Source: Asterionella formosa (taxonomy: Eukaryota). From it: a DNA stretch of 64,000 nt. Below, in pieces: positions 462 to 64,000 of the stretch. The DNA lies in the NCBI GenBank assembly GCA_002256025.1, contig NKIB01002172.1, positions 1-64,000 of the forward strand, given 5' to 3'. Below the pieces are notes generated by a model. It made no database searches. It worked only from the letters and a program-made list of their open reading frames with translations, and was not told where the DNA came from. The position numbers and the translations under genes are program-made. Position 1 is the stretch's first letter, and the number at the start of each line of letters is the position of its first letter.

Positions 462-1249
462 ACCGGTAGTACTCCTCCCGAGGTCAGCAGGACCTGGTAC
501 CTGGTACCTTACATCCTACCCGGTAATCATACCAGGTCTACATACAAGCCTACGTAGACTAACATTATCATATCACAGACAGTGTTGAAATTTATCGGGG
601 TTCTTCCTAGCGCGCTCCAGCACTGCCTTGGAATGACCGGTCAAGATCTTTCTCGTGCCGCTCGTTTGAATATTATTCTGCGATATAAATACTGTCTATT
701 TCCGTTTAGTCATTCCTCAGACTACATCTAGCCTTCGGACACCTGTCGACATCAACAGCCTAACAGACACATTCTGACAAGACAGCGGCGTCTGTCATTG
801 TGAAAATGTACATCATAGAGCAGTACACATAACAATTTTTATGAGCTTTGCCTGGCGGTACTGAGTATTTTGGTGCTCTGATGCTAATGATAAATGTTAA
901 TCATTATTGTGGATTTGTACCATCTTTTTGCTTGCTACACACATTCAATTCCAACAATCAGACCATATCTGGTGGGGGGAAAAGTCCAGGTGAGGGCAGG
1001 CAATGTTGAAAGGCTCCGGTGACTTATGAAGGTGAGTAATTCCAACAAAACTGAAGTGCCCAAGTGATTGCAATGTACTCATTTTTCTTGCTTTCTTCCT
1101 AAGATGTTTCATTAGATGGATTCCTTTTTACTGCAGATGACCTCCAAATAATCAGGCTGATTTGTCACACACAAAAGTAGTGACAGTTACAACAACAACA
1201 ACAACAAAGAATGCAACCAAATCCAAGCATAGACTTCCAGTTATTCCTG

Positions 1250-1960
1250 ATGGCATGAATGATGTAGACTATTGAGAGGGTCAATCTCCAGTGCCAAAGA
1301 GGCATTGTGGCCATTGAGGCATTGTGGCCATTAGTGTGCCAAGATCAACACTGTATGATGCAAAGAAGTGACTGCAGAAATGCTGTGCCAAACTTGTCCT
1401 TGTTCCAATTTCTTAACAACATTTTCAGAAAGAGACAAGCTTCAAGGAATTCTTGATTGCTTCAGAGATAAAAACAATAATAGGTGACAAGGAAGAAAAT
1501 AATTCTTTTTTAAATATGGATTTTACTGGATATTGTATGTGGAAACAGGCTGAGAAATACCCACACTTTCTGATCTGCTCTGGCAAGTTCCTTGCTTTGA
1601 AGCATGGGGTCATACCATTTCTGCATAAAAGACAACCAAAAAGCGTTCCCAGATAGCAATTGAGAAACAGCTTGGATGGCATGGAAACATAATAGAATCT
1701 ATTTGGCAAGAGCAATTCCAACTGAAACATAAAAATGAGGATTTTAGTCTTGTAAAGCCCATTTTTTGTGCAATGTCGATGAGACTGAGAATGGCATGCA
1801 TGATGGCAAACCTTGGGACAATAAAGGTGATTGCAGAATTGTCAATAAGAAAACAAGAAGAGGATATTAATGATTGTTGGGATGAAATTTCAATGGTAAG
1901 AATCAGCAAAGTTCGATCACAGCATGACAAATCTTATCAGTCAGCAACACTGGAATGAGC
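1250..1960 (+). pseudogene. Degenerate pogo/Tc1-mariner-like transposase remnant
   Basis: Translated fragments ISVPRSTLYDAKK (psq-type HTH-like, ~1330-1370) and CNVDET (first DDE Asp context, ~1770-1790), interrupted by stops and frameshifts. Confidence 0.45.
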
Positions 1961-2242
1961 TAGATAGTAGGAGTAGGAATCGAGCCATCAGCATTCCTTG
2001 ATATATCTTTAAGTGAGGGCTAACTATCACTGCCAAAACCTACAATAAAATATGTATTCCATTGTTCTGTAATTTCTGATGCAGTCAGTGAAGGAGCAAA
2101 GAAAAAGATTACATAATGGAGAATCAATATGTTTGAAGGCATCTCTGTATGTCTAGTAACTTTTTCGAAGGAACATTTGATACTCTACCAGTATGAATGA
2201 TTAGATAAAATATACAAGACTTAACAGGAATTCGAATACCCG

Positions 2243-2416
2243 GTACTGTGAAACTGTACCAATTACTACGTTGGTACAGTGAAACTATAGGTTTGCCCTA
2301 CCAGCATTCCCTTCTTCCCCTTGTCTCAATACCCGGTCGGAACATGACATGGTGGCTACAGTGAAATTGTACCTATTACTAAGCTGGTACTATGAAACTG
2401 TAGCTTTGCGCTACCA
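2243..2416. repeat. Diverged direct duplication (~60-bp unit, two copies)
   Basis: gtgaaactgtaccaattactacgttggtacagtgaaactatagg vs gtgaaattgtacctattactaagctggtactatgaaactgtagc. Confidence 0.7.
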
Positions 2417-4164
2417 ATCTAATGTCTATTACTGAGTATTTCTGTGCTGCATTGTTTCCGATCCAGCACTTGCCCACTTTCTAATCCTATAGTTGGCAGA
2501 CCATTATCCCTTTCTGCTTCCTTGTTCTGTTACAGTCACGTTTTTCTTGACAACTTGACATTTGCACACTATCGATAGTGCCATATATCACTTGTTATCT
2601 GGAATGGCAAATGTTCCGAGTGCTACAAGGAATGGAACGATCTTGGTTGTGAAGGGGATACCGATCGCAGATTTTTCAATCAGGAAAACCTGTTTCTATG
2701 GCGTATTTCATGTCTGTTCAAGAGACAATGGAAGAGTAAGGAACGACTCTTACTGGTTAGATACTTTGATCATGATGACAAAGGCAAGGCGAAGAGACTA
2801 GATTACAGTGTCCTGGATTTTGTTCTCAACAAATTCTATGTGGTCCTAGAGTCTGGCTTGTTTAACAAAACATTATTTGAAACTTCAAGGAAATTTTGGA
2901 ATCATATAGGACCAGCCATGATTTTATGGAAAACTCAGCACTTTCCTCGAGATTTTAGACTACATCAGAAAGACAACAATATGCCACTAAATGCACCCAT
3001 GACCTGCATCCAGACTGGCGACCATGTCCAGTTTCAATATTTCCAACTCCTTACTGGATAAATGGGACAAATCACTTTCCTCCTCGACCTGTTCTTTATT
3101 TACTTTCCCAATCACTCCTACAATTTCGGAATTCTTTGGTGACAAGTCATGGAATGCTTCTTCCGGATTGGCAACCATGTCTGGAGTTGCCTTTAATTTA
3201 CATTTTGCTTTGGAAGGGGGAGATTTTATATCAAGTCTATCAGATTCGATAGACTCAATAAGGCGCTCTGAGGAAGTCAATGGGGTTAGGCTGTCCTATA
3301 TATTGCCTCTGATGATGCCGATAAAGAGATTTCTTAAAACAATGGGACAGTACAATGTTATTAAGCAAAGTTACAATTTTTATTTCGAACCCCCTGCTAT
3401 TCAAGGTTCATGTGATGCTACTATTTCCTAAAATGAAATGAAGCTACTTCCTGATTAGTGATGTTGCGGCTCTAATTCTGCAACATACAAATGTGCTCGC
3501 CAATAGCTAGTCAATGAGAATGGAAGACCCATGGCTAACTAAGGCCATGAGCAACAAACTGCGCCGCCGTCTGGTCAATCTTCACTTTGATCCACATCTC
3601 ATCTTGAAGAACAGATTCGAAATACGGATCGATGTTCGCAATGGGCGAATTATGATCAAAAGGTATTATCTTCTTGATTTCGTTTGGAATTGGAATCGGG
3701 TATGGCCTTCAATGCATTGTTCTCCAATTCTGTCATATAAATTGACCAAAGCTTTTGATTTTGAGTAACAAACAAGCAATCAAACTTTGCCAGCATAATA
3801 CCCCATCAATATCGAGACCATATCGTTTGTTATAAGACTGAGATCATCGTCGTCCCCGCAAGAAGGTAGCTCGTAAGGGATTGTTCAACAAACGCACATG
3901 GCTTGTAAGAAATTCGATTACTGAAATGCAAATGGAGAGATAATGACGAATACTCCCGGTACAAGAATTGGATCAAAGCATGTACCGGTAGAGCATTCAA
4001 ATCGGAATGGCAACAAAGAACGCACCGTTGTTGCACAGAATTCATTCTGATAGCATTGTTGGGTACAAGGTGTACATACACGTAAGGTCGTGATCTGTGT
4101 AAAGTCATAACCTTTGCTAAAACAATAATTGATCAAAGAGCAACAGCTATTGATCAATCAAACA

Positions 4165-8159: not shown

Positions 8160-8318
8160 TACTACTTACCGGTACATGATGGTACCTAATGGGTACCAGG
8201 TACCAGGTACCAGGTACCTGGTAACAGCTACCTGGTACTCCAGTTTTTTTTCTGCTTGTGTATCAGGGTACCGGTACCAGGTAAGAAGAGTAACAGGGTA
8301 TCTGGTACCAGTACCAGG
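8160..8318. repeat. GGTACC/ACCWGGT palindromic array abutting an LTR
   Basis: gggtaccaggtaccaggtaccaggtacctggta...gtaccagtaccagg immediately precedes the LTR-initial TG at 8319. Confidence 0.85.
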
Positions 8319-8515
8319 TGAAGTATCTAACTAGAAGTAGTAGTATTTGTTGAATATGTGAGCTTATTTGTTAATCCTTGTGTGTAACTCGTTCTCTAAG
8401 TCGACACCAAAGTATACAATGAGGGTTAGTCGAGTTCTCTCATTATTGAGTTCTGATACATATATGATAGAACACTAACCCTATATACATCTGTATTGAT
8501 GCATAAGATCGCTCA
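8319..8515 (-). repeat. 3' LTR of the degenerate gypsy copy
   Basis: tgaagtatctaactagaagtagtag...gatcgctca followed by ctctcccaca (purine tract on the - strand), as at 53670. Confidence 0.88.
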
Positions 8516-11500
8516 CTCTCCCACACCAAGGGAAAACCTTTTACCTTAAAAAAGGTTTGATGTAATGAATATTAATTCGTTCCGTAGTATGCATAGTTTG
8601 TTGAAAAGTAACTGTACCATTGGCATATACTTGAATAAATAGAATAAGGACCTCCTCCATGGTTATCCAAGGTAGTAGCATTATCCAATAGGATTAAAAC
8701 CTCATCAACAACTTTGTAATCGCAAGAACGACGACGGAAATTATCACGAAGTAGTCATTTGTCAATTATCACTTATTGACATTGATATCCCAATATCAAT
8801 TACATATCTGTAATCAAATCATGTTGGAAAACCCATGTTCCTGGTGAAAATACACAATGTACTATAAATAGTAGCTCGAACTGCATATGATGCAGCAAAC
8901 TGGTATCCATAATAATTCTGAACTTGAAATTCCTTGATTGGAGGATGAGCCTTTAGCATAACTTATACATAGACTGTTACTGATAGATTGATGTAAACGT
9001 TCACGGATAGCATTTGTTTGTGGATTCTTGACTGTAATGGTCCCAATTTTAATTCCATTCAATACTTACATGTGTATGAAAGGAATACCAGTAAATTGAC
9101 CTCCATTGTCATGTATACATCCTTCTGGACGGAGATATCAGTCTAACCAATCATTTTCAGATTTCATCGCAATATATTCTAATGACTTATTATTGATATG
9201 TGAACTGTCTGGTAAATTGGTGACTGTGTTAATTCAAGTTGGAGCATGAAATTCAATCGCTTGTGCAGTCACTGTTATCTTCCATGGACCAATGAAATCT
9301 ACTGTGACTTCTGAGCATTGTAATAACATTGCATTCCTTGGTGGAAGTTCACCAAAACCAAGCATCAGGTAATTTTGTACGTTTTGACATGTTTCATATA
9401 TGCATGCAATATGTTCCACTCTTGCTTTTAATGGAAGATAGTAAAAAAATGTGTAGAAACTGTGGCATTTCATCTTATCATACCCACATGAGCTAACCTC
9501 TGATGATACCAATAAATAATAGGATCCAATAGTGATGCAGGAATAACAATACATCAAGTATCTCCTGGATTCTTCACAAAACATATTAAATATATATGAT
9601 GAAAATTGATAGAGGGAAATTTTAATGGATGTGTTTGTTGATTGAGAATGAGATGAGATGTTTGATTGAGAATCGATTGTATATCCAGCAATTGTCTATC
9701 ATGTATTGAGTTATAATCCAGAGGACATTGAATATTGTCTGCCAAAATCGGATGATTGAGGAAACAGGTAAACAAAGGTTCATCATCTAGTACTTCAATT
9801 GAGAAAGTAGAAATGGATGTTGATGCTGAAGAATTCGGTCCAATATCATCCCCCACCAAAGACTCAAGCCTCGGGAGGCGAGAGATAGAAGTTGTAATAT
9901 TTGACATTAGTATCAGTACCCTTCATATTGTGAAAAGTGAGAAGATATTCTTCATTATAAATCCTCCACCGGAGAACACGTTGAGTTTCTGTGTAGGTTA
10001 ATAAAGATAAAATATGATGATCAGTGTGAACATGTAGAACCGCATTCAATGGCATAGAGTGAAATTCTTTGAAAGTTTCTTAATTGCAAATCAGAAACAT
10101 CAGTAAAAAATATGGAAATGAAAATTACAATCAGGATAACTCATGAGTGTAGTATCTGCAACTAAGAATGCTTTCATTGATGTAAAAGTTTGTTGATGTA
10201 TGCATAGGTAACCATACAAATGGTCTAGTTCCATTTCTATCCTGTTTTAAATTTTGAAGACCAAAATTTGAAGTCGGTTGGAGTTTATCGATATCCCAAT
10301 GAGTCAGTTTCTTTAACAGACCATTTCATATAGAATTGTGCTGGAGGACTTCAGCCATGATAACAGCATCTTTCCGTATCTGTATATTTAGGAGCTTGAA
10401 TGTTCCATGTGTAAACATAATCCTTGATAGGTGTATCAAAATATAACAAACCATTGTGCAAATGTTCTGTGCGTATCATTATAGGAATGCATGACATGCA
10501 GAAAAACACTGATATATCAACCATACAGACAGGACATGGTATTTGTAAATTATCCTTCATAAATAAATCAGCTGGACAAATGAGCAAACTCGCAGAAGGT
10601 CCTAAGACCAGGTACTTCTGTTGCAAGATACAAGCTGACGGATTAAATTTTGGGAGCATCATGCTGAGTACTGGCAAAGGAAGAAAAGATGGGATCATAC
10701 CTGCTATGCATGGTATATATTAATTATAAATGTTCGATTTTACAACGAAATGTCCTGAAGTACAATCCATTCATAAGTTAAAGATCAGGATTCACCGCAA
10801 TCAATTAATATTCATCTTATGTCATGTATATACAACGCAGCCACCAATCCTTGGGTTGTTAATGACATGAGAATGAAATGCAATTAAGCTTATGCATTCT
10901 TAGGCAAAGAAAAAATGAGACCGGAATCAGGCCTTGAGATGTGCATATGGAATGATATATTGAATCTACCTTTGCATTTTAAAATATCCTGCGTTACAAT
11001 AGCAGTGATATCCAACCTGTAATTATCTTGTAAATAACAAAAGTTATTCAGGTAATGATTGACGTAAGACATATTCAATGTGCTGTTGCTCATATATATA
11101 TATATATATATGTATATTATTAAAATCATAGCATTGTTGCTATTCTCGCACATACTTCTGCTAAGGCGATCTGTTCAGCATTCTGCTGGTTTTTTATTAG
11201 GCACATCGGCCACTAACTGACCAACAGGAGGGTTCATGACCACTAAAATTTCCTGGGCAGATTCATAATAGTCGGCAGGTATGGCCCTTGGCACAGTACC
11301 CTAACCAGACATCATCATAGGGTTAACCCATAGATTTGCTTGTATAAAATATGAACGGAAGAAAAAAACATGAATAGATTTAGCTGTGTTAGTATGATAA
11401 TTTGCTCCGCATAGAATTTCTACGCCAGGAGAGGAACAGGAACAGGATTACGAACAGGAACAAGGTTAGTAGTGTTAGTAATGTTAACTCCATGAACCTT

Positions 11501-53699: not shown

Positions 53700-56600
53700 C
53701 CTAGTATGAAAAGGTTTGATATGATGAATATTAATTCGTTCTGTAATGTGCATAGTGCGTTGAAAGGTAACTGTACTATTGGCATGTATTTATATAATAG
53801 TAGTATAAGGACCTCGTCCACGATCATCCAAAGTAGTAGGATTATCTAATAATATTAACGTAAACGTTCGTCAATTATCACTTGTCGACGTTGATATATT
53901 AATTGTAAATCTGTAATCAAAGGAATATTTAATATCATATCAAGTTGAAAAACCCATGCTCCTGGTGAAATACGTAATATACTATGAATAGTAGCTCGAG
54001 CTGCATATGACGCAGCTGCAAAACATGTATCCACAATATTTTGGGCTTGAAATTCATTCATTGGAGGATGAGCTTTTAACATACCTCGTAGACTATTACT
54101 GATGGATTGATGTAAACGTTCACAGATAGCATTTGCTTGGGGATTCTTTACTGTAGTAGTCACATCTTTGATTCCATTCAATAATAACAGCATGTGTAAG
54201 AAAGGAATACCAGTAAATTCACCTCCATTGTCATGTATACAACGTTCTGGACGGGGATATCTGGCTAACCAATCATTTTCAAATTTCATCGCAATATATT
54301 CTGATGTTTTGTTAGTGATGCGTGAAATTTCTGCTAAATTGGTGACTGTGTCAATACAAGTTAGAGCACGAAATTCAATCGCTTGAGCAGCCACTGTTAT
54401 CTTCCGTGGACCAATTAGATCTACTGCAACTTCTGCCCATGGTAATAACAATGCATTCCTGGGTGGAAGTTCACCATTACCAGTACCAGGTAATTTTGTA
54501 CGTTGACATGCTTCACATATGCTTACAATATATTCCACTTTTGCTTTTAATGTAGGGTGATAAAAATGTGTAGCAATTGTGGCATTTAATCTTGTCATAA
54601 CCACATGAGCTAACATCTGATGATACCAATTAATAATAGGATCCAATAATGATGTAGGAATAGCAATACGCCAAGTATCTCCTGGATTCTTCACAAAACA
54701 TATTAAAAATATGTCATGAAAATTGATAGAAGGAAATTTTAATGGATGTGTTTGTTGATTGAGAATCGATTGTATATCCAGCAATTGTCTATCATGTATT
54801 TAATTATAATCCAGAGGATATTGAATATTGTCTGGCAAGATGGGATGATTAAGAAAACATGTAAGCAAAGGTTCATCATCTAATTCAATTGAAAAAGTAG
54901 AAGTAGAAGTTGATGTTGGAGATTTCGGTCCAATATCAATATCATCCCCCACCAAAGACTCAAGCCTCGGGAGGCGCGAGATGGAATCTGCAATAGCATT
55001 GTCAGTCCCTTTCACGTAGTGAAAAGTAGGATGGTATTCTTCAATGTAAAGTCTCCATCGTAGAACACGTTGAGTATGTAAAGTATTATAAATAAGATTT
55101 CAATGATGAGTGTGAACATGTAGAACTGCACCCAATAACATAGAGCGAAATTCCTTGAAAGTTTCTACCACAGAAAGTAATTCTTTTTCAATAGTAGTAT
55201 AATTCTTTTGAGCAGCAGATAATTTGCGAGAATAATAAGCAACTGGCAGATCATTTTGCATAATGACCGACCCTAATTGATAATCAGAGGCATCATTAAA
55301 GATATGAAAAGGAAGATTAGCTATGGTCAGGATAACGCATGAGTGTATCTGCAACTAACAATGCCTTCATTTCTTCAAAAGCTTGTTGATGGATAGGTAA
55401 CCAGACAAATGGACTAGTTCCAATTAAATCCGTAAGTGGTCCAAGAACATGAGATCGTCTAGGAAACATGTCTCGATAGTAAGTAACAGCACCGAGAAAT
55501 GATCTGACTTGTTTAAGATCAGTAGGTGAAGACATATTAATCAATGCTTGGACCTTTTTAGACCAAGGGGGTTTCAGTCCATTAGGAGTTAACCAATAGC
55601 CTAACCAATCTGTCTCTTGGACTGCCCATTCACACTTAGATGGATTAATTGTAAAACCATTTGTCTGTAAATCTGTAAACGATGTAAAATAGTGTCCAAT
55701 AAATGAAGGTGATCTGAAAAATTCATTGAAAAACAACCCACATCATCAATATAAATTTCAAAATCATCTAAATCACTAAGGATCTGTTCCATAGTATATT
55801 GTGCAATATCAGATGATTGTTTCAACCCCATAGGAAGACGTAAATATTTATATAAAACAAATGGAGTTGAAATAACGCACAAGTTTTGACTCCGCACATC
55901 CAAGCAATGCAAAAGTATAGTATTGCATGGAAACATCCAATTTGGTGAAAAATACATATCCAGCACGTTTAGTGAGAAAAGTTTGTATTCTAGGCAAAGG
56001 GTATATATTGCGATTGATGGCTTTATTGAGCTCACGAAAATCTGATACCCATCGGACACTTCCATCCTTTTTTGGAATAATAAAGGTGAGAGATGCCCAT
56101 TTAGAAGCACCACATTTTTGTAGGACTCTAATATCACATAATCGTTGTAATTCAGTTTTGAAAACTTGTAAATGAATATGAGCGACCGGATATGCTCGTT
56201 GATGACGAGGGACAGCATTTGACAATAATTCCAAATGTACCTGTTTATGAGGATAGACTTTTCATTTGCCATCAAATAATGTTTGATATTTAACCAATAT
56301 ACTAGTTCGTAAACATGATCGTTGTATTGTTGTCAAATGTATCTGTTTATCCACCACTGTATCAATATTTACGTAATTATATTCAGCAGCTTTAATTTCC
56401 AGCGCATATGAAGATTCCATAATCAAAGGAGCATCAAAATATAATAATACATCTCTTAAACGTTCCCCATCATCAAAGAATGTGAGAGGATGCATAGGAA
56501 CAATCATATCCACACAGGACATGGTGTTATTTACGAAATCAATGGTGAAATCAATGGTGAAATCAATGGTTAAACCAACTTGACGGAGGAAATCACGTCC

Positions 56601-58426
56601 TAAAATATCATCAAATGTGCATAGACCATTAAAGACTTGACATTTTTGTTGTAAGATATGAACGGATCGATTAAATTCTGGTAGAATCAGGTCATATAGC
56701 ATGATACCAGCTATGGTACTATGTATTAATTGGGAAGTCTCGTTAGACAAAGAAATACCTTGAGGCATAACCCGTTCATGTATTAAGGATAACGATCCTC
56801 CACTATCGAATAATACTCGTAGTATTTTATGCATAGTAGGTATATCATCCACCAATCGTGGCGCTAAAAGGGACATCGGAATCAAATCAATTGATGTTAA
56901 TATATCCTTAGAAGTGAAACAGGAAACCGGAATTGGGCCCTGATATGTATGTGGAACGACGTCATGTCCATCAATACAATTATATATGTCCCGCGTTACA
57001 ACAACAGCGGTATCCATAGTGTATTCAACCTGTAAGTAAACAATATTATTCAGGTGATGACTAACGTGAGATATACTCAACGAGTCATTATTAATAGCAA
57101 CGCTATTATCGCACATACCTCTGTGATGGCGATCAGCAATCTGCTGTTGTGTAGTAGGGACAAAAGTCACTATCTGACCAGCAGGAGGGTTCGTGACCAC
57201 TGAAATTTCCTGGGCAGATGTATTCTCGGTAGGATCGGCACATGGCACGGTACCCCAACCGGATGGATGAGTATTATGACCCCATGCATTTAACATACGA
57301 GCATGTGGAACAGGCACAGGGTTAGCAGTGTCAGTATGGTAGCTTTCCATAGGATTGCTGTGTGAACCGACTCCACGACCACCAAAATTTCCTCGTCTAC
57401 CGAAACTGGAACGGCCACGTCCATTATGACGACCAGCCATGCGACCTGTTTGACCACCTTGAGTACGAGGATTCTGAAAACAATTGCCCCAAGTATGTGC
57501 ACCTTCAGGATGTACCGGGCAAGGACCGCGATAATCATGGTATGTACGACTGGCTTGTAGAGCTTGATGACGAACAGTCGCCTGACGATCCCATGCGCGT
57601 CCGGCTGCATTGACAATAGCACGCGCTCTTCCACGACCACTTGGAGTAAAATTATCGTTGTAGAATTGACGACTGACACTCTCGTTTTCTTGACGCATCA
57701 CACGATTGCCTTCAGCAATACAAAGACGATTTTGTGTGATTGTTTGAAAACTGTTCTTGGGAAGATGCTTGTTTCGGTCTTTAAAATAAACGATTGTTGA
57801 CTCTCGAAGTAAGCGAGAACCGAACGAATCGATTGGTCTGAAGTATTTGCATGATTTGATTCAAACTCTTGTTGCCACTCATCCGGCTTAGAAGGGATGA
57901 TGATAATCCGCATATCTTCTTTTGACAATCCTCTTTGATCCTCTGAATGAGGCATTAGTTGAAGTAGCCTGTTCAAAGTTTTAAAACGAGCTCCGAAATC
58001 CATTACCAACATGGAAAAGGGTTTAGATAAATAACGTAGCATCCATTGTCGTTGACGTTGAAAACTCTCGTTTGGTAAACAATTGTCTAACCACAAAACC
58101 ATCGCTTCATCGAAACTATCGTAGGACTGATCTTCTGGGTGTACTTTCACATTCAACCAATCCGATAAGGCAATGTCGGTCAAACACCTTTTAAAGTAGG
58201 AAAAGGTATCTGCAGGGCTAAAGGCACCTGTGTTAGCCATGTCACAAAATTGACTCACTCAAATTAACAATGCTTCCACAGAGCTTCCATCGATCATATC
58301 TTGATCAAACGATTCAAACCTTCCACCGGTTAAAGCAACTCTGAATGTTTTAGTCTTGATAATCAATACATTGTAGTCTTTGATCAAAGGAATCACAGGA
58401 ACCCTTGAATACATTGCCATGTTCAT
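53700..58426 (-). pseudogene. gag-pol of the gypsy element (disrupted)
   Basis: gag from ATG 58426 with an internal TGA; knuckle CPVHPEGAHTWGNC; protease [18 protein letters not shown]; RNase H DASDYQLG; integrase VAVDLIGP, DNGGEF, NPQANAICERLH. Confidence 0.92.
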
Positions 58427-58459
58427 TGTCTTCTAATTTGACTCTTTTTGAATTCAAAG

Positions 58460-58654
58460 TGAAGTATCTAACTAGAAGTAGTAGTATTTATTGAATACAT
58501 GAGCTTATTAATTAATCCTTATGTATAACTCATTTCCTGAACTGACATCAAAGTATAGAATGGGTGTTAGTCGAGTTCTCTTATTATTGAATTCCGAAAT
58601 ATTTGATATAACCCTAACCCTATGTACATCTGTATCAATGTGCAGGATTGCTCA
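58460..58654 (-). repeat. 5' LTR
   Basis: tgaagtatctaactag...ggattgctca, ~96% identical to 53476-53670. Confidence 0.95.
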
Positions 58655-58756
58655 CCTGGTACCTGGTATGAGGTACTCGTACTTGCATAAGGGATGTACC
58701 AGGTACCCCTGGTACCTACCAGGTAGTGCCGACACATATTGACTGCCTTGTACCAG

Positions 58757-58846
58757 AGCAAGTTGCGGTCATTTTGCTTAAACTAACATTCTAATCTAGG
58801 ATAAAGATAGCTAAATCTTTAGCTTCAGCAAAATTACCGCAACTCC
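58757..58846 (+). mobile_element. ~90-bp MITE-like element with its own terminal inverted repeats
   Basis: agttgcggtcattttgcttaa ... ttcagcaaaattaccgcaact form imperfect ~21-bp inverted repeats. Confidence 0.72.
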
Positions 58847-59635
58847 TTGCAGGTACCACAGGGTATCTGGTACCTGGTACTGGTACCATCGGCAAAGGTA
58901 CTTGGTACCTGGTACCAGGGTACCGATACCTTGCTTCCAACGTAGACCTATTACCGGTACGTTTGAGAGCAAGGCAAAGAAATGATTACCGGTACTAATT
59001 AGTCGACCGGTATTTGCCTTTATGTAGCAGGTTTTGTTCGTACATAGATATCATACCTGCTGCAGCTATCATATGATATATTAATGTATGTATGGTATGA
59101 TAATCTAATTCTTCCTCTTTATTTTTCTAGCTTCAGTGGAACTGTAGAAACGTTATGTTGCCGGGCACACCAAGATAACGCCTATGACGGGCAATGCCTA
59201 CAATACTGTAGATATACATGAATACTGGCTCGCGAAACGACAATCTTCGCACAAAATCATAGTAAATTCTTCTTGTGTCCTTTTTCGGTAAGTTGGCCCA
59301 TGGCGAAAGAATCAGAGAGAAATGCTGCATTCATCGGTAGGAGTTTGTAAACACCATTCACACATACAGTAGCAGTTGATGAATCAAGGATAGTTGCAGA
59401 ATTAGGAAAGGAGCGCACATAGACAAGCAGAACGCACAGGTCACGCTTGTTGCAGTGCTTATGGTACATAACGCTGCATATCCCTAGCCCTACTTTTTGT
59501 GCTGTACTCAGTTGGCGATGGCGGGATCGTCCTGTTCTCAACGATTTTTTTGTTTTGAATTATCAACCATTGTTCTTGACTGACATATTCACTTCTTCTC
59601 TCCCATAGTCATTCACAAACAAATAACACCTCATC

Positions 59636-60248
59636 ATGTCTGTTGAAATGGAAACATGCCCAGCTTCGGCTCCCTTTTTTGGTTTCATGGGAGTCACTTC
59701 TGCCCTTGTTTTTGCTAACATTGGTGCTGCCTACGGAACCGCCAAGTCTGGTGTTGGAATCAGTTCTATGGGTGTTATGAACCCTGGTCTCGTTATGCGT
59801 AACATTATTCCCGTTGTCATGGCGGGTGTGTTGGGTATTTACGGTTTGATTGTGGCCGTCATTATTCAGGGGTCTATTGTAAGCCCCCAGAATGGACTTT
59901 CTCAGTACAGTTTGTACACTGGATTCGCTCATTTGGCTGCAGGCTTGTGCTGCGGTTTGAGTGGTCTTGCTGCCGGTATGGCCATTGGAATTGTCGGAGA
60001 TGCCGGTGTTCGCGCCGTTGGACAACAGGAAAAGCTTTTCGTTGGTATGATTTTGATTCTCATTTTCGCCGAAGCTCTTGGACTTTACGGTAAGTTTTCC
60101 GAGCATTGTGCTTGCGTTTGATTTCTGTACAATTTCCTTCGCCCCCAACCCAGTATTGTTCTGACACCTTTATTCCCTCATCATTTCAGGTTTGATCGTC
60201 GCTCTGATCTTGTCCCAAAACTCCTTCATCTGCGAAGGAAACAACTAA
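59636..60248 (+). CDS. ATP6V0C: V-type H+-ATPase proteolipid subunit c (canonical); exons 59636-60089 and 60190-60248
   Basis: [33 protein letters not shown] and [18 protein letters not shown] with the essential Glu (GAA 60071-60073); GT-AG intron 60090-60189; 170 aa. Confidence 0.97.
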
Positions 60249-61188
60249 ACGTATACTATATAGTTTCTAAATTCAATCAATCCAATAGCAGCCTGCCTAG
60301 TGTTACTTTTTTTTAGGGCTTAGATGATATCATAAAGGGAATACTGCTCATGATAACGGAATCAAAGGCATAATTGTATGCCAGAACTTCATGGCCAGGA
60401 TTCCATAAACATTAATTGTATTTGCCCGGTTTTCTTTATTGAGTATCTGAGTCATGACAAAGCTTGAGTTAAGAGTTATGGAACGTGGACAAGTTGCGCC
60501 CTTTCTGGATTGACTCTACCGGTAGGTTCCTGGACAAAAATACCAAATAGCTATTGCTCAATCTTTGATTTAGAGACGGTACCAGTACCGTGCTACCGGT
60601 AGGCAGGAATATCACGACCGTCGTGGTCATTCAATCCTGGAGCAGTCATCGCCGGCAGTGTCGTGAAGGTTGCAATCTACCGGTATGATGTGGTTATCTT
60701 CGTATCGTTGCCATACGAGGTCAGCTACCAGGTATCAGGTCCTCAGTACCTCGTAGGCGTAGTACCAGGTACCGGTACCAACTTATTATCTTGGTCGTTG
60801 GTGACAGGTAGTAGGAACTGGTACCTGGTACCAGGTCCCAGTTACGTTGTAGACTACTGATACGGTAGAACACATACTGGTGTGTGCCTTTTAAAATGCA
60901 TATACCTCGGTTCCTTGTCGAACACCCCCCAAGGAGTACTTGTACCAGCTACGGTCAAACTGCCTACCAGGTACCAGGGGTACGGAACTCCGTGGTATTA
61001 TATGTATAAAAATGTCGAAGGAGAGTTATTTCCTCCTGCGGTTCCAAGCACACAACGACAATATACTTGTATTTTATAACGATATACAATCTTTAATACT
61101 TACGCCAGCCGGGTGTTCGGGCTTTGCTTGAAAGGCATCTCGCTGATCATTTACATTTCTGAATTAATATTTATACTACTCGGTCACC

Positions 61189-62233
61189 ATGTCATCTGTA
61201 GGATACGATGTTTGCCCGGCACTGGCTCCCTTTTTGGGTTACATGGGTGTAATGGCTTCCATCGTTTTTGCAAGTGAGTGGCCGATAATAGCTTCGAATG
61301 GAGTCGCTTTTTCCTTCGACGGAATCAAGTCGAAAAATGGTCAACCGTTTGAAAAGGGTTGGTGTCATTCGACAACTACGGCGATAGGCAAATGCTCCAT
61401 CATTCCTATCTTTCTATCGTATGATGCTTCATAGGGAGACGGGGTTATGCATTAGAATAGCCAGCAACATGAAATGACGGATTACGCCCATTTTGACCAA
61501 TACATTTTAATCCTTCAAGGGTGAAAATTCTTCAGGTGTTACTCCTCACTTTAGCTGACCTGTCACACCACAGCAAACTTCACTGGCCTATGGATTATCA
61601 TGAACAATTTTTGTTGGGTTTTTTGAATAGATTTATCATCGGAAGCATAGTTGCGATCCCAAAGAAATGCCCCCTACCCTAATCTAACTCTAGTCGCTCT
61701 TTTTCTTCACAGACATTGGTGCCGCCGCTGGAACTGCAAAGGCTGGCGTTGGAATCATGAAGGCAGGAATCAAAACACCTGAGCAAATCTGGAGAAATCT
61801 AATTCCCGTTGTCATGGCTGGTGTTAATGGAATTTACGGTCTCATTACGGCTATCATTCTTGTTGGCTCCATCTCTTCTCCGGATTCAGGAACCCATGAA
61901 AACAAGTATTCGCTGTACACTGGTGCTGCCCACCTGGCAGCAGGTATGTGCTGTGGTTTGAGTGGACTTGGGAGTGGTTTCTGCATTGGCATTGCCGGTG
62001 ATGCTGCGGTCCGAGCATGTGGGACGTTCGATGTGGATCTAAAGGCAAGTGCTCGTGTGGGACAAGGTGGAAACAGTGCAGGACGTGGCGAAGGGAAGAA
62101 GAAGGCTGGGGGAGGAGATCAATTGTTTGTCTCCATGGTTTTGATTCAGGTGTTCGCAGGCAACATCGCGCTTTATGGTTTGATTTCTTCCATTATTCTC
62201 AGTCAACAAGTGTACTACTGCGGTGCTAACTAA
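61189..62233 (+). CDS. Divergent V-ATPase subunit c paralogue lacking the TM4 glutamate; exons 61189-61273 and 61713-62233
   Basis: GT-AG intron 61274-61712 yields FAN-IGAAAGTAKAG in frame; [28 protein letters not shown]4 reads LIQVFAGNIALYGLI; 201 aa, no stops. Confidence 0.9.
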
Positions 62234-62314
62234 ACTTCGTATAGCATGACTGCTTTACCAAGCAGGAATTGAGCATCAATGATACTCGGAGTATTATTTG
62301 CCCCAAAACAATTT

Positions 62315-62500
62315 AGACATGCATGTATGATAAAGTTCAACTGCAATTCACTGTATGTTGCACAACGTAGATACTCGGTAGTCTAATGTTAGTCAGTACA
62401 ATACATAACATCTAGACAATGCAAGTATGATAAAGTACAATGCAATTCACTGTCAGTTGCACAACGTAGACACCAGTAGTATAATGTTAGTCAGTACAAT
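62315..62500. repeat. Diverged ~99-bp tandem duplication
   Basis: gtatgataaagt..tgcaattcactgt..gttgcacaacgtaga..taatgttagtcagtacaat twice. Confidence 0.85.
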
Positions 62501-63399
62501 GATGAGACCAGCTGCTGGTGAATTTCTATATTGTAATAGTCCTTCATGAGGTTCTCTCACTGGGATTACATTCTGTTATCATCAATTTTGACTTGTGCAG
62601 ATACGATGCCTTGAGTATAACTAACTCAATGACACGATGGGAAACCAAAACTGTGACAATTTACCAACTTAGGAAAAGCATCCCACTTTAGGTAAGGTAA
62701 AAAATGAATTCAGCCATGTCTGAAATTAAACCTCAAGCCAAATCAATTAGAGCTTCGCTAATTCGCATAATACAAATTGTGTAGAACATGTTCAAGGGAA
62801 CATACTTTCACAATTATTAACATATTTCAATTGCAGTTTCCTAGAAGTATAAAACATGTAATAATGTCATGTCATTTCATAATCATTAAGCACACCTTTA
62901 TAAATATTTAAACTTTTGCAGATCATTGCTTGCTGCATTTGCAAAACTACTTCTCTGTTGCAAAATATATGGTATGATGGACTACTGTCACCAGCAAGAC
63001 AGGTACCCTGAACATGAATCCAGCCATATGTATAATTTTATATTGGGTTCACGAGCGAGTAGTTGGTACATATGATGAAGCTGGCATTTGCATATTCAAA
63101 TTCTAATGACTTTAGATCCATTCATTATTGTTTGTTTTCATCACTTTGGCCAGAAAAGGAAAAAATTAGTTTGGAGAGAATAAATTGATGTAGTAAGCAA
63201 GAGGGGCTTGCCCGCCATTGTCATTTGCTTTTTTCTAGCTATTTGCCCATACTTTGACATTTTCGCATTTGGAAGAATAAAATCAGTTTTAAACTTGCAT
63301 CAATTAAGTTTTGTGAAACAGATGATTTCAATGAGTGGTGAATTGATGACATTCTTTATGCATGATGAACAAAAGCACCTGTCTGGCATCACATTGTTT

Positions 63400-63426
63400 G
63401 TTTCAGCAAAATGACCACTATTTGCA
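63400..63426 (-). repeat. Diverged copy of the TIR-like motif
   Basis: gtttcagcaaaatgaccactatttgc, similar to the reverse complement of 47151-47177. Confidence 0.55.
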
Positions 63427-64000
63427 GGTCCCTGGAGTATCAGAAACCAGCACCTTCTACATAGATTACAGTGGTGAGGTGATATAAGTTGATTAGCAGT
63501 AGCCATACTCAGAAAATGAACTGGAGATCGTACTTATTCCAATGCATTGCTTACAATCTTGGTAAACAGGAACGACCATGGCTGATGCTACAATCATGAC
63601 AATCCCGCTGCCCTTCTTCTGCTCTGTTATGTCACATCTGATGAAATCCAAATCGGCAGAATTTACTATTGTAATCTGCTGAATCGGCGCTATTTATTTC
63701 ATTCTCCAGGTTTTTACATTCATCAGATTTGAAGCAACAAGGTGCAGCATCTATATATGAGCGCTTGTTTTGTTAGTATACTCTACCACAGTCACGTCAA
63801 TTTTTTTTATGAGGATAAAATTTTCAAGGCAAATGAGTATTAATTAATGTTTCCTAGTAGGATAACAAAATCACCATTCTGACCCCTGATATAAGGGTGA
63901 TTCCAATACGCCTACATATACCGGTAGCAGTATGCATATTACTAGCGAGGAAAATTACATCAGATAAACCATAGTGTGAGGCAATACTATATCTACCACA

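Follow-up and report, generated by a model that had tools for sequence, protein, structure and literature searches.

A diatom family of V-ATPase c-type proteolipids without the proton-carrying glutamate

The diatom Asterionella formosa carries two genes for c-type proteolipids of the vacuolar-type proton ATPase (V-ATPase) within the stretch of DNA analysed here (contig NKIB01002172.1, positions 1 to 64,000; hereafter the window, 64,000 nucleotides long), and the second of them encodes an intact protein that lacks the proton-carrying glutamate (Glu) of the fourth transmembrane helix (TM4). The genes stand head to tail on the plus strand, with canonical c upstream and the Glu-less paralogue downstream. 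Eukaryotic V-ATPases are taken to depend on a buried Glu in each of their proteolipids. The paralogue is transcribed, and it belongs to a family, here named clade A, in which a fixed, uncharged polar pocket has replaced the proton-carrying carboxylate. Neither a eukaryotic V-ATPase proteolipid without Glu nor the diatom clade A was found described in a full-text literature search of about 8.4 million papers and preprints; a 2014 paper by Bussard and Lopez, which is reportedly on the V-ATPases of diatoms, could bear on priority. Databases name the proteins of clade A, and those of a sister family described below as clade B, only 'V-type proton ATPase proteolipid subunit'.

Gene, transcripts and fold of the paralogue

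The paralogue product is a four-helix c-type proteolipid of 201 residues in an intact frame (Table 1), 51% identical to the neighbouring canonical c apart from a 31-column gap. Its TM4 reads LIQVFAGNIALYG, and in HMMER alignments the segment FAgNIALYG is paired with FAEaLALYG of the solved citrus, human and yeast c or c' subunits, so that Gly178 sits exactly on the position of the proton-carrying Glu; the same residue also aligns to the Glu of the neighbouring gene. The Gly178 codon is GGC (62159-62161), flanked by GCA (62156-62158) and AAC (62162-64), and is two changes away from GAA/GAG. TM2 reads PVVMAGVNGIYG and contains no Glu, and the sole acidic residue in any helix of the paralogue is the Asp of IAGDAAV, which is also present in canonical c. 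A preliminary description, made from the sequence alone, had reported that the TM4 Glu codon is replaced by GGC and that TM2 has no compensating Glu, and translation together with alignment to solved structures confirms it.

The protein is a V-ATPase c-type proteolipid with the c-subunit fold. The family model PF00137 matches it with an E-value of 1.8e-22 over three stretches (two ATP-synt_C hairpins, four transmembrane helices), and TIGR01100, a model that spans only TM1-TM3 and is therefore blind to the TM4 Glu, scores 126.5 bits against a cut-off of 61.45 (canonical P0353, 166.4). Sequence matches in the PDB are strongest for c and c' chains (E about 1e-28 to 1e-20) and much weaker for c'' chains (E about 1e-11 to 5e-9). 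A c''-type subunit (Vma16 or ATP6V0B) was rejected on account of this weak match and of the missing TM2 Glu (yeast c'' E108), in agreement with the earlier statement that no TM2 Glu compensates and that the protein is not of the c''/Vma16 type. A different targeting signal was likewise rejected: the N-terminus is collinear with that of canonical c, and since there is no N-terminal extension relative to canonical c, nothing hints at a different compartment. An AlphaFold2 model (predicted local distance difference test score, pLDDT, 81.9) has helices at residues 12-46, 51-81, 96-144 and 162-192; TM3 is lengthened as far as residue 144, and the loop that follows (residues 145-161) is predicted with low confidence (pLDDT 52-61). 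Compared with the PDB using Foldseek, this model matched yeast, human, bovine and citrus c chains (E 1.6e-10 to 5e-9; target template-modelling score, TMt, 0.85-0.92), and also 2bl2 and the Acetobacterium woodii c1 chain 4bem_J (E 6.5e-5).

Contigs of three RNA runs from three studies (X8, the poly-A run X9, and X16) and of one DNA run (X6) were compared with the window over 59500-62400; these are assembled contigs rather than raw reads, so that rare variants would be lost. At 62159-62161 the contigs of all four runs (X6, X8, X9 and X16, from four studies) cover GGC with no other letter, and neither GAA nor GAG occurs there. One X8 RNA contig joins 61273 to 61713 and thereby the two exons of the paralogue, RNA contigs of X8 and X16 join the exons of the neighbouring canonical c, and exon 2 of the paralogue is covered by RNA contigs that run on to 62394-62400. 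In X8 and X9 the word depth is 31-55 over the paralogue intron, compared with 1100-3400 over exon 2, and the intergenic stretch 60858-61148 has zero RNA cover, whereas the DNA run covers it. Moreover, a database contig of 933 nucleotides (nt) encodes exactly exon 1 plus exon 2 (P0312, 201 residues). The paralogue is thus transcribed and spliced as modelled, with transcripts in the RNA contigs of all three studies.

The intact frame and an intron position unlike that of the neighbouring gene had both been described before and stand, with one correction to the gene model: exon 1 ends at 61273. A phase-1 GT..AG intron inside the Asn29 codon can be reconstructed in three (L009, L010 and L025) of the 29 related metagenome loci that served for comparison, many of which are short and some possibly transcripts, and the intron is old; several other clade A loci are uninterrupted, including L004 on a contig of 9,980 bp. 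In the 3' untranslated region, two copies of a short unit lie about 99 nt apart at 62319-62500 and are 91-96% identical (repeat families D7-D9), the first of them covered by RNA contigs as far as 62400.

The closest database relative, P0004, is encoded on a transcript-sized contig and is 100% identical to the exon 2 product of the window (172/172), with differences at about 9 positions in its first 28 residues. A tblastn search of the window did not find its alternative first exon. P0004 could represent a second gene copy, a divergent allele or the outcome of gene conversion.

Conservation of the family and remodelling of the ion site

Conservation within clade A was assessed on the best 120 of 971 database homologues of the paralogue (55-100% identity). 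The TM4 motif QVFAGN occurs in 120/120 of them and the TM2 motif VNG[IL]YG in 119/120, and an orthologue retaining Glu at the TM4 site was found in 0/120. Every named holder is a diatom: the araphid pennates Fragilaria crotonensis (two genes), Licmophora paradoxa, Thalassionema nitzschioides and Thalassiothrix antarctica, the raphid pennate Fistulifera solaris, and the centrics Ditylum brightwellii, Helicotheca tamesis and Aulacoseira subarctica (several copies). A look-up in the ESM Atlas returned generic proteolipid clusters, whose commonest phylum is Bacillariophyta. In alignment A1, which contains 36 full-length clade A members, N67, S116, Q174, V175, F176, A177, G178 and N179 are invariant. 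The new polar residues of the preliminary description, Asn in TM2 and Gln and Asn in TM4, are therefore present and invariant among these members.

This invariance holds at the level of the protein. Among 12 coding sequences (the window and 11 metagenome loci), the former Glu site uses all four glycine codons (GGC in 2, GGA in 3, GGG in 3 and GGT in 4), and both codons of each of Gln174, Asn179 and Asn67 are in use. Ratios of nonsynonymous to synonymous substitution rates (dN/dS) are quoted for the two least saturated of 55 pairs, synonymous sites being saturated in most of the pairs (proportion of differing synonymous sites, pS, 0.66-0.85); locus L002, whose open frame runs through an intron-like insert, was left out. 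The values are 0.02 and 0.04, rather than near 1, and point to purifying selection on clade A. An old, maintained duplicate, as the paralogue had been taken to be, is what the intact frame, the family-wide QVFAGN and these ratios support.

TM4 is the most conserved segment of clade A (mean top-residue frequency 0.92), yet it is also the segment least like canonical c, with 14/31 consensus residues shared, compared with 22/35 in TM1 and 29/37 in TM3. Unlike canonical c, for which most listed diatom proteins are 93-100% identical, clade A evolves much faster, with 55-87% identity among the listed homologues. Because fast evolution overall is combined with a TM4 that is both the most conserved segment and the most unlike canonical c, a change of function followed by constraint is indicated; the site of the paralogue was rebuilt and then frozen rather than lost.

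A comparison of 43 clade A with 106 canonical proteins identified positions that are fixed in both groups but different (canonical residue first): S39A, M55W, I58L, L67N, V74T, V76I, A115G, A116S, G127A, Q163G, I171V, L174Q, I175V, E178G, A179N and G181A. Gln174 lies one helical turn before Gly178, on the same face of the helix. As described in PMC7541076, Glu137 of yeast c has two bonding partners, the Met59 carbonyl when it is protonated and Tyr66 when it is ionised. For Enterococcus hirae NtpK, PMC2359735 gives the Na+ ligands as Leu61 (through its carbonyl), Thr64, Gln65, Gln110 and Glu139, with Tyr68 beneath. By the helix register M63…Y70 of the paralogue, M59…Y66 of yeast c and L61…Y68 of NtpK, Asn67 would fall on the Na+ ligand Gln65, on the face of TM2 that looks toward the ion site. 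The pocket thus appears to have been relined with amides and one hydroxyl around the gap left by the glycine.

The second change concerns the loop between TM3 and TM4, which faces the cytoplasm. It measures 24-85 residues in 147 clade A proteins (median 35, median net charge +5, about 25% Gly), compared with always 8 residues in 124 canonical proteins. The invariant Arg of the canonical GDAGVR motif is not kept in clade A and loop 1 is variable; together with the added insert, this means that the face which canonical c shows to subunit d is altered.

A profile-free exhaustive search of 1.84 billion cluster representatives, and a search with one Pseudo-nitzschia protein, brought to light clade B, a second Glu-less sister family (e.g. 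P0126, P0300, P0462, P0467 and P0544). Its TM4 motif is Q[VI]FA[G/S]N in 120/120 proteins, with Gly (66) or Ser (54) at the former Glu site. Clade B resembles clade A in this Glu-less motif, in a TM3 that reads LASG, with Ser at the place of Ser116, and in an insert in the same loop; it differs in the Gly-or-Ser alternative, in the canonical Leu at position 67 of TM2 (118/120 proteins) and in the nature of the insert, a conserved and nearly neutral motif of 29-38 residues (…SWKKMGF…). Its holders are Pseudo-nitzschia (P. multiseries P0300), Fragilariopsis (F. cylindrus P0462), Cylindrotheca, Nitzschia, Seminavis, Epithemia, Craspedostauros, Fistulifera solaris, Attheya, Odontella, Chaetoceros, Eucampia, Leptocylindrus, Corethron and the parmalean Triparma retinervis (P0544). 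Parmales are the sister group of diatoms, and Triparma is silicifying. Fistulifera solaris holds both families (P0041 in clade A, P0467 in clade B), and the two clades are kept in all major diatom lineages sampled. In a maximum-likelihood tree of 51 rows, the support values (Shimodaira-Hasegawa-like approximate likelihood-ratio test, SH-aLRT) are 99 for clade A, 94 for clade B and 86 for the two joined apart from canonical c; the tree is unrooted and its alignment short, so that it does not resolve the order of events. If the join is right, the Glu would have been lost before the diatom-Parmales split. The basic TM3-TM4 insert, the invariant Ser116 and this second Glu-less family go beyond what the preliminary description contained.

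Other divergent proteolipids were observed alongside these two clades. Clade C (P0131, P0133, P0136, P0137, P0147, P0191 and P0194) is a third divergent c-type family that keeps the TM4 Glu (IMLIFSEALALYG). Its TM1 is marked by the Trp-rich motif GSAWGTWKSG, and its TM3-TM4 loop is lengthened by an acidic insert (47 residues, net charge -5, in the two proteins measured); one of its members is an MMETSP transcript. The proteolipid P0242, whose branch is very long, likewise has Gly in place of the Glu (VMSFAGATALYG), and P0444 is a canonical-type c with Asp for Glu (FADALGLYG).

A proton-blind ring position and its alternatives

Like canonical c (yeast Vma3, human ATP6V0C), the paralogue is a four-helix double hairpin of about equal core length with a close TM1 and TM3; unlike it, the paralogue has Gly178 for the TM4 Glu, the new and invariant residues Gln174, Asn179, Asn67 and Ser116, and the long basic insert. 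The hairpin without a carboxylate, otherwise intact and under purifying selection, is a feature shared with A. woodii c1 (PDB 4BEM) and with multi-hairpin archaeal proteolipids. Blind hairpins of the A. woodii c1 type carry Gln in place of Glu. There, however, the fused subunit joins a blind hairpin to one that still binds the ion, whereas here a whole four-helix subunit is blind, and it is eukaryotic. The A. woodii ring combines nine one-site c subunits with one V-type c that has a single site, and PMC9171764 indicates that ion-blind positions work and argues that fewer sites per ring permit a larger ion gradient.

The reading that we favour, tentatively, is that the paralogue forms a proton-blind position in a mixed c-ring of the membrane sector (Vo) and so lowers the number of protons carried per turn. 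The paralogue would take one position of the Vo rotor ring beside canonical c subunits. Gly178 would make room, and the amide of Gln174, with Asn67 and Asn179, would mimic a permanently protonated Glu, so that the blind position could face lipid and slide past the arginines of subunit a, neither gaining nor releasing a proton. Such a ring would carry fewer protons per turn and could hold a steeper pH gradient per ATP, maybe with less leak, and the basic Gly-rich cytoplasmic loop may determine which ring position the subunit occupies, or how it meets subunit d or a. The near-canonical TM1 and TM3, which are the inner-ring helices, are what co-assembly in one ring would call for, and the invariant uncharged pocket would suit a position that has to cross the lipid phase and pass the arginines of the stator while carrying no proton. 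Canonical c is encoded next door and both genes have RNA contigs, which would permit co-assembly. We infer ring membership, the amide-mimic role and the effect on the H+/ATP ratio; taken together, the observations suggest a modified rotor in diatom proton pumps.

Subunit c' is known only from fungi. The role proposed here resembles that of c' (Vma11) and c'', specialised c paralogues that each occupy one fixed place in the ring, but in both of these a Glu remains essential (c' E145 on TM4, c'' E108), and function is lost without it, according to PMC7541076. Several points weigh against a proton-blind position. In the same text, mutation of yeast c' E145 or c'' E108 abolishes proton pumping, a longer Glu-free gap is read as undrivable even by ATP hydrolysis, and the natural gap is already rate-limiting; since single yeast Glu mutants are dead, a blind position would not be tolerated by default. 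The altered subunit-d face and the insert of 24-85 residues could mean that the protein no longer docks as c does, and the geometry proposed for the amide mimic derives from helix register only. The word depth of the paralogue in RNA contigs is of the same order as that of canonical c, where one copy per ring would predict otherwise, but contig depths cannot rank genes and were rejected as a measure of stoichiometry. A complex prediction for canonical c (P0353) with the paralogue (P0312), run without controls or custom alignments, gave a score of 0.31 against a mark of 0.34 and counts on neither side of the binding question.

A wider form of the proposal is doubtful as a whole. It would make diatoms and Parmales the bearers of the first known eukaryotic hybrid V-ATPase rotor, in which one or two obligatory proton-blind proteolipids (clades A and B) with amide-lined pockets bring the ring to less than 1 H+ per proteolipid per turn, a higher-gear and tighter pump that could serve strongly acidic compartments, the silica deposition vesicle among them. 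The link of Glu-less proteolipids to silica deposition vesicles is speculation, which fits the diatom holders and the silicifying Triparma in clade B.

The readings weighed here take in the four roles that the preliminary description had suggested: regulatory or dominant-negative, altering the H+/ATP stoichiometry, serving a different ion, or V1-independent. The behaviour of the yeast mutants bears on a different role, an unlikely one, in which the Glu-less subunit acts as a brake or regulator of the rotor. It would stop or strongly slow the ring at subunit a and yield a parked, proton-tight Vo (a storage form or a lock against leakage), or else an inactive pool that grows or shrinks with expression of the paralogue. 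Loss of pumping in single Glu mutants of c' or c'', and a natural Glu-free gap that is the slowest step of rotation, as PMC7541076 has it, are what such a brake would look like, and the altered cytoplasmic face with its basic insert could hold subunit a or d. A pure poison subunit, however, needs no invariant rebuilt polar pocket, and the retention of clades A and B across the major diatom lineages, together with transcripts in the RNA runs of three studies, also speaks against it.

The altered cytoplasmic side can also be read as a sign that the protein has left the pump, which we regard as quite unlikely. The Glu-less proteolipids (clade A, perhaps with clade B) would then form a V1-independent ring or membrane assembly of their own that does not pump, with a structural, fusion-related or channel-like role, for example. 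Without Glu, subunit a is not needed; the loops that face subunit d have lost the conservation they show in canonical c, and the protein has gained a long basic one; and two Glu-less families coexist in one species (Fistulifera solaris P0041 and P0467). Against this stand TM1 and TM3, which line the inner wall of the ring and stay close to canonical c, and the conservation of every face of TM4 (0.92), which suggests a protein partner on the outer face; moreover, no partner gene or distinct gene neighbourhood was seen in the 29 related metagenome loci.

A new ligand site is very unlikely. In this case the Asn/Gln/Ser pocket, whose five residues are invariant, would bind Na+, K+, H3O+, an anion or a small neutral solute, and carry or sense it. 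Asn67 would occupy the place of the NtpK Na+ ligand Gln65, where polar residues mark Na+-binding c subunits, but the same source (PMC2359735) holds that in all known c-ring sites the cation is bound chiefly by a Glu or Asp, and that residue is absent here. The Leu at position 67 in 118/120 clade B proteins also excludes such a ligand from a shared ancestral change. Finally, an artefact or decaying copy, that is, a miscalled base in the Glu codon or a pseudogene of recent origin, is refuted by GGC in four runs of four studies, the intact frame, the spliced transcript, Gly in 120/120 homologues and the dN/dS of 0.02-0.04, and is left with practically no probability.

Genomic setting and significance

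Canonical c proteins of many diatoms share 97-100% identity with the product of the neighbouring canonical c gene, and the c proteins of raphidophytes, one pelagophyte and one oomycete share 85-88%. The tandem arrangement of this gene with the paralogue, as first described, holds in the window but not as a general feature of the family. Of the related metagenome loci, eight extend 1.5 kb or more upstream (L004, L007, L017, L019, L021, L022, L027 and L028); a canonical c gene was found in 0/8 of these, and none was found anywhere else in the 29 loci; because none of the eight flank-bearing loci holds canonical c, the arrangement was dropped as a family trait. Locus L020, on one metagenome contig of 3.4 kb, carries two clade A genes in tandem (403-960 and 1620-2289).

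Just upstream of the canonical c gene, on the minus strand, lies a long terminal repeat (LTR) retrotransposon (window 53300-58750) whose open frames are split over several frames, and a copy of its 197-nt repeat, 82% identical, is present at 8318-8516. GGTACC-rich blocks of low complexity (ACCTGGTACCTGGTACC-like) occupy 58654-58932 and 60720-60988, on both sides of canonical c, and are partly inverted to each other. At 60760-60840 many contigs of the DNA run X6 are broken and leave loose ends, and there is a 6-nt insertion at 60900; together, the blocks and the contig breaks suggest that canonical c and the paralogue are separated by a repeat that is dispersed or polymorphic. An Rfam scan of 55000-64000 gave zero matches. 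Elsewhere in the window, a long open frame on the plus strand (48998-50245) contains pyridine nucleotide-disulphide oxidoreductase domains (Pyr_redox_2, 3.4e-32) and is unrelated to the proteolipids.

Table 1. Features of the two proteolipid genes and of the adjacent retrotransposon, in window positions
Feature	Positions	Strand	Details
LTR retrotransposon, direct repeats	53475-53671 and 58459-58655		197 nt, 96% identical
LTR retrotransposon, integrase zinc-binding domain	53855-54799	-	open frame
LTR retrotransposon, reverse transcriptase domain	55601-56332	-	open frame
LTR retrotransposon, retroviral protease domain	56262-57860	-	open frame
Canonical V-ATPase c, exon 1	59636..60089	+	Met1 to first base of the Gly after LYG; TM4 with proton-carrying Glu; PF00137 1.4e-29; RNA contigs X8, X9, X16
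Canonical c, intron	60090..60189	+	100 nt, GT..AG, phase 1, after LYG motif; joint 60088/60189 (cut +1) in RNA contigs X8 and X16
Canonical c, exon 2	60190..60248	+	stop TAA 60246-60248; agrees with full-length diatom c such as P0364
Glu-less paralogue, exon 1	61189..61273	+	MSSVGYDVCPALAPFLGYMGVMASIVFA and first base of Asn29 codon; joint 61273/61713; residues 1-28 of P0312
Paralogue, intron	61274..61712	+	439 nt, GT..AG, phase 1 inside Asn29 codon; joined in X8 RNA contig
Glu-less paralogue, exon 2	61713..62233	+	rest of TM1, TM2, TM3, loop insert, TM4; stop TAA 62231-62233; P0001; PF00137; TIGR01100; RNA contigs of three studies
Asn67 codon (AAT), TM2	61826..61828	+	N in 43/43 clade A rows, L in 106/106 canonical rows
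Ser116 codon (AGT), TM3	61973..61975	+	invariant Ala in canonical c; Ser also in clade B
TM3-TM4 cytoplasmic loop insert	62024..62116	+	about 30 residues (TFDVDLKASARVGQGGNSAGRGEGKKKAGGG); 31-column gap versus neighbour; helical TM3 extension, then low-confidence basic Gly-rich loop
Rebuilt ion site, TM4	62147..62164	+	CAG GTG TTC GCA GGC AAC = Gln174 Val Phe Ala Gly178 Asn179
Paralogue, 3' untranslated region	62234..62400	+	at least to 62400 (end of stretch compared); RNA contigs X8, X9, X16 reach 62394-62400

Diatoms are major primary producers, and they use the V-ATPase in silica deposition, in vacuolar storage and in carbon concentration around the plastid. Strong selection would have maintained a whole family of c-type proteolipids without Glu from a time before diatoms diversified, and these proteins have a rebuilt polar pocket in place of the ion site. 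Either eukaryotes have rotor rings in which some positions are blind, and evolution can alter the H+/ATP ratio, or proteolipids of the c type do other work besides pumping protons. For those who study the mechanism of the V-ATPase, the family may offer a natural experiment in how a ring passes a Glu-free gap, and the answer bears on the physiology of diatoms.

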